Positions 1,515 to 10,057 of a stretch of DNA of 11,936 nucleotides are shown piece after piece. Location of the stretch: the IMG/VR virus record IMGVR_UViG_2681813004_000015, positions 1 to 11,936 of that record; one strand, given 5' to 3'. The translations under genes and the position numbers were made by a program. The stretch comes from a virus (lineage: Duplodnaviria > Heunggongvirae > Uroviricota > Caudoviricetes). The stretch's first letter is position 1, and every line of letters begins with the position of its first letter. The notes beneath the pieces are model-generated. The model did no database searches, had not been told where the DNA came from, and worked only from the letters and a program-made list of their open reading frames with translations.

Positions 1515-2707
1515 TGGCAAAAGTGGCTGACGGGATCCGCTACGCCGAACGTGTTGTTGCAGGAGAAATTGTCGCTGGCGAATTTGTCCGTCTGGCCTGC
1601 CAGCGTTTTCTTGATGATCTGAAGTACGGCGAAGAGCGGGGGATTTATTTCAGTGAACCCCGTGCGCAGCACATCCTGAATTTCTACAAATTTGTGCCCC
1701 ATGTAAAAGGGGCGCTGGCAGGTCAGCCCATTGAGTTGATGGACTGGCATGTTTTTATCCTCATAAATATTTTTGGTTTTGTCATTCCGCTGGTGAATGA
1801 AGAGACCGGGGAAGTTGTCATGCGCAGCGATGGCAGCGGACGCCCGGTGATGGTGCGCCGGTTCCGGACGGCGTACAACGAAGTCGCCCGTAAAAACGCA
1901 AAATCAACCCTGTCATCGGGTATCGGTCTTTATATGACGGGGGCAGATGGTGAAGGCGGTGCTGAGGTGTATTCAGCCGCAACCACGCGTGACCAGGCCA
2001 GAATCGTGTTTGAAGACGCCAAAAATATGGTCAGAAAAGCCCGGTCGACACTCGGGCGGTTGTTTGATTTCAACAAGCTGGCGATTTACCAGGAGCAGAG
2101 CGCATCAAAATTTGAACCGCTTTCCTCGGATGCAAACAACCTGGACGGTCTGAACATCCACTGCGCCATTATTGATGAGCTGCATGCACATAAAACCCGC
2201 GACGTGTGGGACGTTCTGGAAACGGCAACCGGTGCCCGTCTGCAGTCCCTGTTATTTGGTATCACCACGGCGGGCTTTAACAAGGAAGGAATTTGTTACG
2301 AGCAACGCGATTACGCCATCAAGGTATTGCGAGGCTATAACAGTGACGTGGAGGGCGCGGTAAAAGACGACTCCTACTTTGCGATTATTTACACGCTCGA
2401 TGAGGGAGATGATCCGTTTGATGAAACGGTCTGGCAGAAAGCGAATCCGGGCCTGGGCATCTGTAAACGCTGGGATGATCTGCGTCGTCTGGCGAAAAAA
2501 GCGAAGGAACAGGTTTCAGCGCGGGTGAATTTTTTTACCAAGAAAGTAACATCACGCCGTAACAACAGTGCGACCTGTCCTGATTTTTTTAGTAACCAAA
2601 TGAAAGAAAAAGATTTTTTCTTGTTCGTCGTTTTTGTTTTTTCTGGAAGGTTCTGGCTGTTTTCATCATTTGTGTATTGCACTGTGTATTGCAAAAACGG
2701 GTTATAA
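1514..2707 (+). pseudogene. terL: terminase large subunit, 3'-truncated: ATPase domain only, terminase-like to about nt 2545
   Basis: N-terminal ~345 aa read as an HK97-family TerL ATPase domain. After ...ARVNFFTKK the frame runs through T-rich low-complexity codons (FFLFVVFVF...) into the int upstream region. No nuclease domain is present. Confidence 0.8.
2671..2693. repeat. two direct copies of TGTGTATTGCA separated by 1 nt, 20 bp upstream of int
   Basis: Exact 11-mer at 2671-2681 and 2683-2693. Lies in the AT-rich segment between the terL break and int, next to a short palindrome GAAAAAGATTTTTC at ~2607-2620. Candidate integrase arm-type or regulatory sites. Confidence 0.4.
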
Positions 2708-2712
2708 ATCAC

Positions 2713-3921
2713 ATGGCGCTAAACAAACTGAGCGATAAAAAACTTCGTTCCCTGCTTGGGCGCAGGAGTGAGAGGCAGGAAACCATCGCTGATGGTAACG
2801 GGCTTTCGGTACGGGTCAGTAAATACGGATGTGTTAGTTTTGTTTTCTTTTACAGACTGGCGGGAAGGGGAACCGCGCCCATCTGGCTGACACTTGGAAA
2901 ATATCCTGATCTGAGTCTCAAATCAGCGAGAGAGATGCGCGATCAGTGTCGAACCTGGCTTGCGGAGGGCAGAGATCCACGGATTCAGATAAAAATTGAA
3001 CGGGAAGCCACTTTGCAACCTGTTACCGTTCGTGAGGCACTTGAATACTGGCTTGATAATTATGCAATGGATAAGCGTAGGGGAGCAGAACATATCAGGC
3101 AGTGCTTTGGTAAACATATTTATCCGGTGATTGGTCATGTACCACTTAGTGATTGCTCTATATCTATGTGGATCAAGTGTTTTGACAAAATAAAAAAAGT
3201 AGCACCTGTACAGGCCGGAGCTTTGTTGCGTATATCAAAACAGGCGCTTAAATTTTGTAGGGTAAGAAAATACGCGATTAGTCATGAAATTGATGATCTT
3301 GAGGTCTGTGATGTGGGAAAAAAGTCTGCGCGAAGAAGCAGGGTTTTAACAGATGATGAAATCAGAGATTTATGGCGAAGTATTAATACTGATTATGACA
3401 ATCACGAATTATCATATGAAAACCGAATTATTTTACGTTTCCTGGTAGTTTTTGGTTGTCGACTGTCAGAAGTATTACTGTCGTCCTGGGTAGAGTGGGA
3501 TTTTGATAAGAAATTATGGCGCGTTCCCGCTGATCATAGCAAAAATGGCAGGGAAATAATCAGACCGATTCCTGATGGCATGTTTAACTGGTTAGTTACG
3601 TTAAAAAAAATAACAGGTAACAAAGAAAATGTGATTGGGTTTGATATGCGTCAGTGTACGGCAAGCGTAACTATCGGTAAGACATGGAAAAGGATGAAAC
3701 ACTCGGAAAAATGGACGGCGCATGATATGCGAAGAGTGTTTGCCACAAAGCTAAGTGATCATGGTTTTGAACATAATGTGGTTGAACAGTTGCTTGGGCA
3801 CACATTAGGCGGTGTTGCCGGGGTTTATAACAGAAGTCAGTATATGGACAGAAAAAAAGAAGCTATGAACTGGTGGTACGACTATCTGAATAAGCTAATT
3901 AGTGGTGACGGTAATGATTGA
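2713..3921 (+). CDS. int: tyrosine integrase, P4-integrase family
   Basis: N-terminal arm-binding domain pattern (GLSVRVSKYG...FVFFYRL...LTLGKYPDLSLKSAREMR) and C-terminal catalytic residues (R...HDMRR...LLGH...Y). ATG at 2713 (MALNKLSD) preferred over the upstream ATG at 2677. Confidence 0.92.
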   Translation: MALNKLSDKKLRSLLGRRSERQETIADGNGLSVRVSKYGCVSFVFFYRLAGRGTAPIWLTLGKYPDLSLKSAREMRDQCRTWLAEGRDPRIQIKIEREATLQPVTVREALEYWLDNYAMDKRRGAEHIRQCFGKHIYPVIGHVPLSDCSISMWIKCFDKIKKVAPVQAGALLRISKQALKFCRVRKYAISHEIDDLEVCDVGKKSARRSRVLTDDEIRDLWRSINTDYDNHELSYENRIILRFLVVFGCRLSEVLLSSWVEWDFDKKLWRVPADHSKNGREIIRPIPDGMFNWLVTLKKITGNKENVIGFDMRQCTASVTIGKTWKRMKHSEKWTAHDMRRVFATKLSDHGFEHNVVEQLLGHTLGGVAGVYNRSQYMDRKKEAMNWWYDYLNKLISGDGND

Positions 3922-5868: not shown

Positions 5869-5948
5869 GGTGTGTTTCAGTATACACAAAAAAGAAATAC
5901 AAAAAAGGCTTGACGTGTGTTTCACTCCTAAATAACATGAAACACACC
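5869..5948 (+). promoter_or_regulatory. promoter for the rightward operon overlapped by operator repeats (GTGTGTTTCA motif)
   Basis: -35 TTGACG (5910-5915), 17-bp spacer, -10 TAACAT (5933-5938). Motif GGTGTGTTTCA at 5869-5879, GTGTGTTTCA at 5915-5924 and its inverted copy TGAAACACACC at 5938-5948; the latter two form a palindrome bracketing the -10. Confidence 0.5.
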
Positions 5949-6986: not shown

Positions 6987-7301
6987 ATGAAAAAGAAAAA
7001 TTCTGGCTTTACTGCCAGCGGTCACGCTCGGCCTGAAATCCGCCCCGGTGATATTTTCCGGGATAAATACGGCAGCACGATAACGATTAAAACCGTCGAT
7101 GATTTTCGTGTGACCTATATCCGCGAAGGTTATGCGCATCCCTGCGTGTCGTCACATATGCGCTTTGACAGGGAGTTCACCTTGGTAAGCAAAGCACCAC
7201 CAGCAGAATTAAGCGACATCGACAGAATCATGCGCGTTACAGGAATGGAACGCATTAAGGCAGTACGTGAAATTATTCGTGAACGGGGAAAGGCAAAATG
7301 A
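6987..7301 (+). CDS. hypothetical protein (104 aa), translationally coupled to the replication protein gene
   Basis: GGAG RBS upstream of ATG 6987; its stop overlaps the start of the downstream 707-aa gene (ATGA at 7298-7301). Confidence 0.55.
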   Translation: MKKKNSGFTASGHARPEIRPGDIFRDKYGSTITIKTVDDFRVTYIREGYAHPCVSSHMRFDREFTLVSKAPPAELSDIDRIMRVTGMERIKAVREIIRERGKAK

Positions 7302-9421
7302 AGCGCGCACCAAACTTAAAGCACCAGCCAGCCGACAAAATGACGGAGGTTATCATCTTTGCGGGTAGTGATGCGTGGAGCCATGCGAAAGAGTGGCAGG
7401 AATGGGCAGGTAAACATATTGCCGCCGACAATGTGCCGCCTGTCGTTCTGTCAGATGAACACCTGAAAGATATTACTGGTTATCAAATTATTGATGATAG
7501 CCGTCAGTGTGTGCGTATTTACCGCGCAGGGCACATCACTGAACGTAGCCTCACACAGATCGTCACGTTGCTGGCTGTGGCTGGCGTGAAGACCGTATAC
7601 GAATACGCGGGGATAACTGACACCAGCCCGGCGGATTTATCCGACCAGTTGCCTCGCCTCAAAGACGAATACGAGCGCGGGGAAAGTCTGGTGTTGCCCT
7701 TAAAGAAAAAAATCACAGAAAGCCCGGGTGATGATGAATTAAAGCCCCGCGTTGAAAGCCGCGCCGATGGTGTTTTCTGGGTAACGCCAAAAGTGGATAA
7801 GCAGTCAGGCGAAATTATCCGGCCTGAAACGTGGTTATGCTCCCCGCTTGAGCTACTGGGAACGGGGACAATCGGCAAAGAGCATTACCGCGTGATGCGC
7901 TGGAAAAAGCCAGCAAACCATGACGTCATCACGATGGCGGTTCCGTGCGGTGGCATTGGCGACCGTGACGGCTGGCGGCTGCTGAAAGACCACGGACTGA
8001 ACGTGACAACCAACGGTAAATACAGGGCTATCCTGGCTGACTGGATGCAGTTAAGCGGAAACCATGAGGAATGGCAGTTAAGCACAACAACGGGCTGGCA
8101 TTTTGGCGCGTACATCATGCCGGACGGTTCGGTCATTGGTGATTGCGAAAAGCCAGTCCTGTTTACCGGAAAAACGGCTGCCGTTAATGGTTATTCCGTG
8201 GCAGGAACGGCGGAGGGCTGGCGCGATACCGTGGCGCGACTGGCTGGTGGTAATCCGTCCATGATGCTGGGTGTGGCGGTATCGCTATCCGCACCATTAA
8301 TCGGGCTGGTGGGTGCTGACGGCTTCGGGGTACATCTTTTCGAACAGTCATCAGCAGGGAAAACCACCACACAGAATATCGCATCCAGTTTATGGGGGGA
8401 GCCGGACGCGCAGCGGCTGACCTGGTACGGTACAGCGTTAGGTATCGCCAACGAGGCAGAGGCACACAACGACGGGCTGTTACCCCTGGATGAAATAGGC
8501 CAGGCCGGAAACGCGCGGGAGGTGTCCACATCGGCCTATACGCTGTTTAACGGTTCCGGGAAATTACAGGGGGCGAAGGACGGCGGCAACCGGGAGATAA
8601 AACACTGGCGAACGGTGGCAATCAGTACCGGAGAAATGGACGTTGAAACATTCCTCAAAACGGAAGGGATAAAAGTCAAGGCGGGGCAGCTTGTCCGCCT
8701 GCTTAACGTGCCAATGGAAAAAGCCACACAATTTCACGAATACAGCACCGGAAAGGCGCACGCAGACGCGTTAAAGGATGCCTGGACAGAAAATCACGGG
8801 GCGGCGGGGCGTGAATGGGTTAAATGGCTGGCAGACCATCAGCAGGAGGCAAAGGACACGGTAAGGACATGCCGTGAGCGGTGGCGCAACCTGATACCGG
8901 AGAGCTACGGCGAACAGGTTCACCGTGTGGGGGAGCGATTTGCCATACTGGAGGCCGCGCTTGTGCTTTCAGGTCATGTTACTGGCTGGGATGAGCAGGA
9001 ATGCCGCGATGCCATACAGCATAATTTTAATGCCTGGGTGAAGGAGTTCGGCACGGGTAACAGGGAGTTTAAACAGATGGTTGAACAGGCAGAGGCTTTT
9101 TTAGCGTCGTTCGGATTCAGCAGATACCTTCCGTGGCCCAACACCGACGAGCGTGATTTACCGATTAAAGAGCTTGCCGGATACAGAAAGGGGAGTATCA
9201 GAAACGAAGATGACGAGTTCCGTTTTTACACGTTCCCGCATGTATTTGAGGGTGAGATAGCACAGGGATTTAATCCGTCTCACTTTGCCCGCGTGTTGAG
9301 TGCTGCCGGAATGCTGGAAGCGGGTAACGATCGCCGTTACAAGAAAAAGGCGCTCGGCAAAATTGGGGGGAAGCAGCATGTTTTTTACGTGCTGATGTTC
9401 CAGCCTGAGGCAGAAGATTAA
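7298..9421 (+). CDS. replication protein: P-loop NTPase of the DUF927 / primase-helicase type (PICI pri-rep-like)
   Basis: 707-aa ORF with Walker A (FEQSSAGKTT) and Walker B (GLLPLDEIGQ) motifs. General resemblance to DUF927-type replicative helicase/primase proteins of satellites and plasmids. Immediately followed by iterons. Confidence 0.8.
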   Translation: MKRAPNLKHQPADKMTEVIIFAGSDAWSHAKEWQEWAGKHIAADNVPPVVLSDEHLKDITGYQIIDDSRQCVRIYRAGHITERSLTQIVTLLAVAGVKTVYEYAGITDTSPADLSDQLPRLKDEYERGESLVLPLKKKITESPGDDELKPRVESRADGVFWVTPKVDKQSGEIIRPETWLCSPLELLGTGTIGKEHYRVMRWKKPANHDVITMAVPCGGIGDRDGWRLLKDHGLNVTTNGKYRAILADWMQLSGNHEEWQLSTTTGWHFGAYIMPDGSVIGDCEKPVLFTGKTAAVNGYSVAGTAEGWRDTVARLAGGNPSMMLGVAVSLSAPLIGLVGADGFGVHLFEQSSAGKTTTQNIASSLWGEPDAQRLTWYGTALGIANEAEAHNDGLLPLDEIGQAGNAREVSTSAYTLFNGSGKLQGAKDGGNREIKHWRTVAISTGEMDVETFLKTEGIKVKAGQLVRLLNVPMEKATQFHEYSTGKAHADALKDAWTENHGAAGREWVKWLADHQQEAKDTVRTCRERWRNLIPESYGEQVHRVGERFAILEAALVLSGHVTGWDEQECRDAIQHNFNAWVKEFGTGNREFKQMVEQAEAFLASFGFSRYLPWPNTDERDLPIKELAGYRKGSIRNEDDEFRFYTFPHVFEGEIAQGFNPSHFARVLSAAGMLEAGNDRRYKKKALGKIGGKQHVFYVLMFQPEAED

Positions 9422-9442
9422 CCCCCTGTGTGAGGTGAAAAG

Positions 9443-9568
9443 TTGCGGGTTATGCGGGTTATCTTGTGTATAAGTGCATTAACTGTATGAATAAAAAGGA
9501 AATCAATAACCCGCACGTAACCCGCAAAACGGCAGTTATAACCCGCAAAAGTGCGATTATAACCCGCA
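9443..9568. repeat. iteron-type replication origin: six copies of ATAACCCGCA-like 10-mer flanking an AT-rich tract
   Basis: Direct copies at 9506-9515, 9517-9526 (GTAACCCGCA), 9538-9547 and 9559-9568, with start-to-start spacings of 11, 21 and 21 bp. Two inverted tandem copies at 9443-9462. AT-rich tract 9463-9505 between them. Confidence 0.65.
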
Positions 9569-9631
9569 GAATTTCACCGTAAGGGTGTAAACAAGCGTAA
9601 CAATCAACGTTAAAACCGGAGAACAGACAGC

Positions 9632-10057
9632 ATGACAGCACAGATAGCGGCTTACGGGCGGCTGGTGGCTGACCCGCAGTTAAAGACCACCAGCAAAGGG
9701 ACACAAATGGCGATGGCGAGTATGGCGGTTCCCCTGCCGTGCAGCCAGGCAGATGACGGAACGGCGACGATGTGGTTATCCGTCCTGGCGTTTGGCAGAC
9801 AGGCCGACGCACTGGCCAGACACCACAAAGGCGAACTGGTGAGCGTGGCGGGTAACATGCAGGTAAGCCAGTGGACAGGCCAGAACGGCGAAACGCGGCA
9901 GGGCTGGCAGGTCATCGCAGACAGCGTAATCAGTGCGCGGACAGTGCGACCGGGCGGCAAAAAAGGCCAGCAGGGCCAGGCTACTGACGCACTGAACAGG
10001 GCAAAACAACAGACAGGCCAGCACGATGATCCGTACGGGGACGGGATACCGTTTTAA
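9632..10057 (+). CDS. ssb: single-stranded DNA-binding protein (short phage/plasmid-type SSB)
   Basis: OB-fold pattern parallels E. coli SSB (GRLVADPQLK..., WLSVLAFGRQADALARHHKGELVSVAGNMQVSQWTGQNGETRQGWQV), a G/Q-rich linker, and C-terminal tail ...DDPYGDGIPF resembling the canonical DDDIPF tip. Confidence 0.82.
   Translation: MTAQIAAYGRLVADPQLKTTSKGTQMAMASMAVPLPCSQADDGTATMWLSVLAFGRQADALARHHKGELVSVAGNMQVSQWTGQNGETRQGWQVIADSVISARTVRPGGKKGQQGQATDALNRAKQQTGQHDDPYGDGIPF

Follow-up and report, generated by a model that had tools for sequence, protein, structure and literature searches.

Six short repeats directly downstream of the replication protein gene most likely serve as protein-binding sites at the replication origin of a phage-satellite island carried by E. 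coli. The window, meaning the whole stretch of 11,936 nucleotides (11.9 kb) that was analyzed, covers this island from int through the region upstream of the capsid gene. The repeats are copies of the 9-mer TAACCCGCA, and they very probably act as iterons for the C-terminal domain of the DUF927 Rep protein. Together with the AT-rich spacer between them, they would form the replication origin, or a half-origin, of a capsid-forming phage-inducible chromosomal island (cf-PICI).

Arrangement of the repeats downstream of rep

The 9-mer TAACCCGCA is the invariant core of the repeats, and a pattern search found six exact copies in 9444-9568 and none elsewhere in the window. The left pair (9444-9452 and 9453-9461, minus strand) consists of two abutting inverted copies, TGCGGGTTA, with a period of 9. 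The right array (plus strand) consists of four direct copies of TAACCCGCA at 9507-9515, 9518-9526, 9539-9547 and 9560-9568, with a spacing of 11, 21 and 21. In a repeat search the direct copies were returned as 10-mers, with ATAACCCGCA at 9506-9515, 9538-9547 and 9559-9568 and GTAACCCGCA at 9517-9526, and the values of 11, 21 and 21 are the start-to-start distances of these four 10-mers. The array starts 22 nt past the stop of the ORF at 7298-9421. The first-pass annotation had described four direct 10-mers at these distances, two inverted copies about 45 bp upstream across an AT-rich tract, a position directly downstream of the replication gene, and a motif different from that of phage satellite P4. 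All of this was borne out: sequence reading, the repeat search and the pattern search gave the same direct copies, a spacer of 45 nt separates them from the inverted pair, the first iteron follows the rep stop at 9421 by 22 nt, and TAACCCGCA differs from the P4 motif TGTTCACC.

The clustering of the copies is not random. When up to one mismatch was allowed, TAACCCGCA had 12 matches in the whole window compared to 3.0 expected, and none of 200 shuffles reached 12. In 1000 first-order Markov simulations, which were scored for non-overlapping copies of one 9-mer inside 130 nt, the best cluster contained 2 copies in 992 runs and 3 copies in the remaining 8 runs, compared to the 6 copies observed. 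A promoter/terminator scan found no promoter-like or terminator-like sites in 9300-9750, and Rfam gave 0 matches in the origin region. The outermost iterons extend to a 20-nt inverted repeat (9434-9453 / 9559-9578) that has GGTGAAA...TTTCACC flanks and is 85% complementary. This longer repeat was rejected as a conserved feature; it is found in the short form only, and the O157 version is without it.

The spacer at 9462-9506 (45 nt, CTTGTGTATAAGTGCATTAACTGTATGAATAAAAAGGAAATCAA) is a candidate DNA unwinding element. Its GC content is 26.7% compared to 49% for the window, which places it in the lowest 1.4% of 45-nt segments, and in terms of nearest-neighbor stability it falls in the least stable 0.8%. 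The low GC content is not unique, as 12-13 regions of the window are equally AT-rich. A DnaA-box-like 9-mer, TTATACACA, is located within the spacer beside the inverted iterons (9465-9473, minus strand) and is an exact match to the consensus TTATNCACA. This 9-mer is kept in 042, O157 and L022, is replaced by TTATCCACA at the same place in L023, and has one mismatch in L024; in the 19-locus comparison described below, it was not found in loci of other iteron classes. Because it is absent outside type A, the DnaA box was rejected as a family-wide feature. It is lineage-specific and its role is uncertain.

The Rep protein and its C-terminal domain

The gene directly upstream of the array, rep (7298-9421, plus strand), encodes a 707-residue DUF927 initiator-helicase of the PICI 'Pri-Rep' type. 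The protein matched Pfam DUF927 (E 1.4e-45), PHROG 1139 'DNA primase' (E 1e-173), the SaPIbov1 Rep structure (PDB 8tch; E 3e-15 with the single sequence and 1e-16 with a profile, over residues 210-606) and the SCCmec helicase Cch (PDB 5dgk; E 4e-5). When Foldseek was run with a low-confidence Rep model, the top three matches were Cch and SaPIbov1 Rep (5dgk, 8tch), and these were the only significant ones. P4-alpha-type domains and the Rep_3-type domain were absent from Rep, for which Pfam gave DUF927 only. By homology, the initiator is assigned to the SaPIbov1-Rep/Cch-like DUF927 AAA+ helicases.

The two ends of Rep differ among relatives. The first ~145 residues (coding 7298-7720) are an exchangeable module that is a TOPRIM domain in some relatives and has no Pfam match here. 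The last ~88 residues (residues 620-707; 9155-9418, plus strand) are the putative determinant of iteron specificity, based on co-variation with the iteron class. The most variable and basic part of this C-terminal domain reads RRYKKKALGKIGGKQ in the window lineage, and at the same position other classes carry GWQIRTPRLKH.KGAR or GYQRKSPRIDGRQ; this basic segment is the likeliest candidate for the specificity element. AlphaFold gave a pLDDT of 55.9 for full Rep (31 sequences) and 47.9 for the C-terminal domain alone. The low confidence is probably due to the listed homologs all being at least 65% identical, and therefore no winged-helix call was made from these models. A helix-helix-strand-strand pattern that appears in them at residues 648-683 is suggestive at most. 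The C-terminal domain matched Pfam HTH_56 ('Cch helix turn helix') with an E of 0.0018 and 18.8 bits, which is below the cut-off of 26.2, and HTH_56 was matched by 2 of the 31 Rep family members. Sequence and profile searches of the domain against the PDB gave chance-level matches only, and in hhalign its alignment to the C-terminal fragment of Cch reached a probability of 0.6%.

Conserved geometry and variable iteron classes

The array was compared with 16 loci of Rep relatives from other Enterobacterales and with further E. coli variants, and the geometry was scored in 19 related loci with an intact 3' flank from about 12 genera. The left pair in the relatives is located 21-36 nt past the rep stop and again consists of two inverted copies with a period of 9 (sometimes three, with the middle one degenerate). 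The equivalent spacers in the 19 loci are 41-64 nt long with a GC content of 14-36%, and the direct copies keep the 11/21/(21) spacing in 18 of the 19 loci, whatever the motif.

The repeated 9-mer itself varies among at least eight classes, and every copy in a locus changes in concert (6-12 copies). The class TAACCCGCA is shared by the window, 042, O157 and JP538. The class TAACCCAC occurs in Winslowiella and Tenebrionibacter, TGGGACAAG / TGGGACRAC in E. albertii and an E. coli, TGGGATAAG in Pantoea, TGAGGCAAC in an E. coli, TGAACCACG in Cedecea and TGAACCGR in Rahnella, and TGAACCAAC is found in many genera, including in a TOPRIM-DUF927 island. Such concerted change is characteristic of sites that share one sequence-specific binder. 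Across six E. coli type-A loci, 5 of 54 iteron columns were variable compared to 45 of 105 other columns (Fisher p=1e-5). All five variable iteron columns came from one locus with a displaced first copy, and the left pair was invariant in all six.

Co-variation of the iterons with the Rep C-terminal domain

The iteron classes coincide with clusters of the Rep C-terminal domain, and the region that tracks them comprises the last ~70-120 residues. In Mantel tests with 17 loci, the iteron distance was correlated with the distance of the C-terminal domain (residues 640-707; r=0.76, p=1e-4) and not with that of the helicase core (r=0.05, p=0.30). In the 12 non-redundant loci the correlation with the C-terminal domain was r=0.69 (p=2e-4), and the partial Mantel correlation given the core was r=0.78. 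Up to residue ~584, the E. albertii Rep (L002) and the window Rep share 92-100% identity; in the last 120 residues this drops to 54, 38 and 24%, and the L002 iteron differs from the window iteron at 7 of 9 positions. In this pair the core and N-terminal domain are 96-99% identical, and the homology returns straight after the array, where the SSB is 89% identical. In L003 and L014 the core is only ~74-80% identical to that of the window, residues 665-701 are 70-76% identical, and the iteron is near-identical to that of the window.

The other candidates did not show this behavior. The identities of SSB, PerC and DUF4222 do not follow the iteron class, and these genes are often absent from related loci. 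The Rep N-terminal domain (TOPRIM or not) and the integrase with its attachment site (prophage terL or yifB) vary independently of the iterons. Our data therefore point to the upstream Rep as the probable binding partner of the iterons, through its C-terminal domain. The C-terminal domain adjoins the iterons, and therefore co-inheritance alone would give some correlation. However, this confound leaves the concerted change and the kept geometry unexplained, and both of these argue for selection, even if they do not name the binder beyond doubt.

A second iteron cluster in related islands

In most relatives, the same iteron forms a second cluster 100-330 nt past rep. This cluster consists of one further direct copy, two inverted copies 21 nt apart, an AT-rich tract, and three tandem copies with a period of 9, and the tandem triple abuts a conserved GTTTTG-N-TATATATA element before the next ORF. 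The combination of the triple (period 9), GTTTTG-N3-4-TATATATA and an ORF was seen with any iteron class, at 2820-2870 in L018 and at about 265-330 nt past the rep stop elsewhere; further loci with the triple and this element are L003, L004, L007, L009, L013, L016, L019, L020 and L021. The triple with the TATATATA element may act as a promoter under Rep control or as an additional unwinding element.

In the window and in 042, there is no second cluster at the position 100-330 nt past rep. In 042, a second cluster of exact iterons is located 8.0 kb downstream (L001 22283-22456), between terL and the right junction, and it is ~80% identical to the O157 cluster. JP538 has a second cluster with the same arrangement 9.1 kb downstream (L086 21332-21485). 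This right-end cluster was checked in these two complete relatives, and its equivalent would lie at ~17580-17750 in window numbering, past the window end. It is composed of three inverted TAACCCGCA copies spaced 21-22, an AT-rich tract of ~85 nt, three tandem direct copies with a period of 9, and then CTGTTTTGTATATATATACG. The contiguous and the split arrangements are both present among IMG/VR contigs.

Since a second cluster lies 8-9 kb away in the lineage of the window, the rep-adjacent cluster may not suffice as an origin or may not fire. The first-pass annotation had placed the origin at 9443-9568; this interval holds for the array, and it is possibly not the whole origin given that relatives carry the distant cluster. 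The origin may accordingly be bipartite, with the rep-adjacent array as one of its halves, in a way that recalls P4 ori and crr.

The island and its neighboring genes

Judged by its gene order, which has been described for cf-PICIs (10.1101/2022.09.08.507074), the element belongs to this group of islands. The annotation of 042 and JP538 shows an integrase at the left end, rightward unidirectional genes, the rep module, and then packaging and capsid genes with no tail genes. In 042 the genes after the rep module encode capsid, protease, portal, connector, HNH, TerS and TerL. In the window, a P4-type integrase, HTH regulators, a BRO-N-domain gene, an Icd-like gene and DUF4222 are found upstream of rep, and SSB and PerC downstream. 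The SSB gene (9632-10057, plus strand; Pfam SSB E 8e-16) lies immediately downstream of the array. Most related loci are without SSB, and the island SSB is probably a replication accessory and not the iteron binder. The DUF4222 gene (6987-7301, plus strand; Pfam DUF4222 E 9e-19) overlaps the rep start by 4 nt, and a homolog is located upstream of rep in most related loci.

The island of ~15 kb sits inside the large-terminase gene of a lambdoid/HK97-like prophage. In the window, the TerL N-terminal fragment occupies 1514-2707 and the integrase 2677-3921, and in 042 the interrupted terL is found at L001 6452-7480 and 22711-23454. The left TerL fragment ends ...SARVNFFTK and the right fragment resumes ILTKHMNVW. 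No exact direct repeat of at least 12 nt was found at the 042 island ends, where the shared core is apparently only about TTACCAA. In JP538 the window origin was matched at 99.5% and the rep-ori module is near-identical, with the island integrated in yifB. Upstream in the window, at 5872-5945, GTGTGTTTCA occurs twice in direct and once in inverted orientation around a promoter-like TTGACG-17 nt-TAACAT; these repeats could be an operator for the rightward operon leading to rep.

Depending on the query, 720-2090 of the 5426 complete E. coli genomes contain parts of the region. The phage collection gave 0 matches to the region. The plasmid collection gave a single match, H16 (NZ_CP141089.1); this record is 4.9 Mb long and is therefore evidently a chromosome filed among plasmids.

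Discussion

The closest counterpart of the array is the origin of the S. aureus pathogenicity islands SaPIbov1 and SaPI1. The SaPI Rep, a homologous DUF927-type helicase, acts as hexamers whose C-terminal domain, the seat of SaPI specificity, recognizes iterons immediately 3' of rep. These are divided equally between the two flanks of an AT-rich region, with two or more per flank and with the flanks in opposite orientation; binding and melting take place without ATP, and the helicase self-loads (PMC9371898; PMC7581432). The same origin organization is shared by E. coli PICIs according to Fillol-Salom et al., and in the case of EcCICFT073 plasmid maintenance depends on rep and ori (PMC6092414). 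In the window, the repeats likewise lie 3' of rep, opposed iteron sets flank an AT-rich region, and the match between the iteron and the Rep C-terminal domain is seen as co-variation only. Since the window element has every sequence-level feature of the SaPI/PICI type, we infer the same mechanism. As for the textbook iteron-origin layout that had been proposed for this segment, the layout itself stands, but the closest textbook case is the SaPI/PICI origin with a self-loading helicase and not the plasmid RepA type.

By analogy with these islands, induction would be followed by the docking of Rep hexamers on the two oppositely oriented iteron sets, with four phased copies on the right side and a tight pair on the left side. 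The right copies are roughly one or two helical turns apart and would therefore face the same side of the helix. Melting would occur in the 45-nt AT-rich tract between the two sets, and Rep would load itself as the replicative helicase, after which priming would take place with the island's own SSB as an accessory. Joint change of the C-terminal domain and the iterons would produce distinct replicon specificities on one fixed scaffold.

It is also conceivable, though unlikely, that the repeats are Rep sites that serve mainly in transcriptional control, either in autoregulation of rep read-through or at the ssb-perC operon, and that initiation occurs at the other cluster. In the long form and at the island right end, three tandem iterons abut GTTTTG-N-TATATATA just before an ORF, an arrangement that fits a Rep-controlled promoter, and autoregulation is common among the iteron-binding initiators of plasmids (PMC4980987). 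However, the window cluster is located downstream of rep and not upstream, the scan of 9300-9750 found no promoter-like site, and the opposed iterons around an AT-rich tract have the layout of a SaPI/PICI origin (PMC9371898, PMC6092414). The transcriptional and origin roles are not mutually exclusive.

Binding by a protein other than Rep, such as the packaging protein TerS, PerC, DUF4222, SSB, the integrase or a host factor, might be considered because the island encodes several DNA-binding proteins and the spacer contains a consensus DnaA box. The comparison makes this very improbable. The same geometry and iteron class occur in loci without SSB and PerC and in classical TOPRIM-DUF927 islands (L021), the SSB, PerC and DUF4222 identities do not track the iteron class, and identical iterons are present in islands whose integrases differ (prophage terL or yifB sites). 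The DnaA box is distinct from the iteron motif and is not conserved outside type A. Replication slippage can yield short tandem units, but there is next to no chance that the repeats are functionless, neutral products of slippage or duplication, given that the copies are on both strands, their fixed and non-uniform spacing is kept across genera, and the motifs shift together and vary less than the spacers. A Rep-bound origin or half-origin is therefore the preferred reading of the array.

In spite of the likeness to SaPI origins, there are differences. The SaPI iterons are 5-6 nt long, whereas the repeat here is a 9-10-mer within a 21-bp period and a fixed geometry of 9 / ~45-60 / 11-21-21; the host is Gram-negative, and a second cluster lies 8-9 kb away in this lineage. 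A winged-helix fold of the C-terminal domain, a mark of the SaPI type, was here at most suggested by the low-confidence models. Compared with the E. coli PICI EcCICFT073, related TOPRIM-DUF927 islands (L021) share the scaffold with the window, but the window island is capsid-forming and has a non-TOPRIM Rep N-terminal domain and the iteron TAACCCGCA. The SCCmec element provides another relative, as Cch is a DUF927 helicase, the C-terminal domain of Cch2 binds direct repeats just downstream of its own gene, and a small conserved gene upstream of cch is analogous to DUF4222 here (PMC7581432). It differs in having only three 5-nt iterons and in belonging to another element class, and replication of SCCmec is not shown (PMC7581432).

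Satellite phage P4 and the window island both encode a multifunctional initiator that recognizes, or in the window would recognize, short iterons via its C-terminal part, and the split clusters of 042 and JP538 resemble ori and crr, the two cis sites kilobases apart at which P4 carries the same iteron. The P4 type I iteron is TGTTCACC, in contrast to TAACCCGCA here, and P4 ori is not immediately 3' of the alpha gene. The initiator in the window belongs to another protein family and falls outside the alpha family; PICI Pri-Rep proteins are reported to be only distantly related to P4 alpha, and P4 ori and crr are mentioned in the same study (PMC6092414).

The iteron plasmids (pPS10, R6K, RK2, F, P1) also have direct repeats that are phased by whole helical turns beside an AT-rich unwinding element, with a possible DnaA box. 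Their iterons are typically 17-22 bp long, and their winged-helix initiators (RepA, pi, TrfA) recruit the host DnaB, whereas the initiator here is itself an AAA+ helicase. The arrays of direct repeats in these plasmids adjoin the unwinding element (PMC4980987), whereas the 9-mers here are located on both sides of it. With a DUF927 helicase, and a DnaA box in type-A loci only, the putative origin does not conform to the RepA type.

In terms of novelty, the kind of origin is already known (SaPI/PICI type), and the window array adds a case. The two cf-PICI preprints that were searched (10.1101/2022.09.08.507074 and 10.1101/2025.02.11.637232) do not describe an iteron origin. Neither TAACCCGCA nor a cf-PICI origin map was found in the searchable literature text, where only unrelated primers matched; the published PICI iterons are shown in a figure.

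A further reading can be offered tentatively, and we regard it as possible rather than probable: that the origin is bipartite and splittable and that the C-terminal domain and the iteron, in at least eight interchangeable pairings, form a natural set of orthogonal initiators and origins. If this is true, the rep-side half-site would consist of the tight inverted pair, the AT tract and the phased direct copies, and the second half-site would be its near mirror image, with phased inverted copies, an AT tract and the tight tandem triple by the TATATATA element. The second half-site would follow after ~100 nt, or it would be found at the attR-proximal end at a distance of 8-10 kb, and in the excised circle the distant half-site would face attP and int. 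Rep would then link the two sites, as P4 alpha does with ori and crr, and might in this way tie replication to circularization or to the expression of genes downstream of the triple, and the pairs of C-terminal domain and iteron would set incompatibility among co-resident islands.

The general picture of PICI replication is unchanged by these results, and a modest added interest lies in a scaffold that stays fixed while its specificity modules are exchanged, and in the split position of the second cluster. With the array, a probable replication origin can be assigned to a widespread E. coli cf-PICI lineage. It also suggests a testable specificity code, in which at least eight iteron variants are each paired with a variant of the Rep C-terminal domain on an otherwise invariant scaffold. 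Such a code would be of use in satellite annotation and in foreseeing competition between co-resident islands for a shared initiator, and the iteron/Rep pairs may help to build orthogonal replicons.
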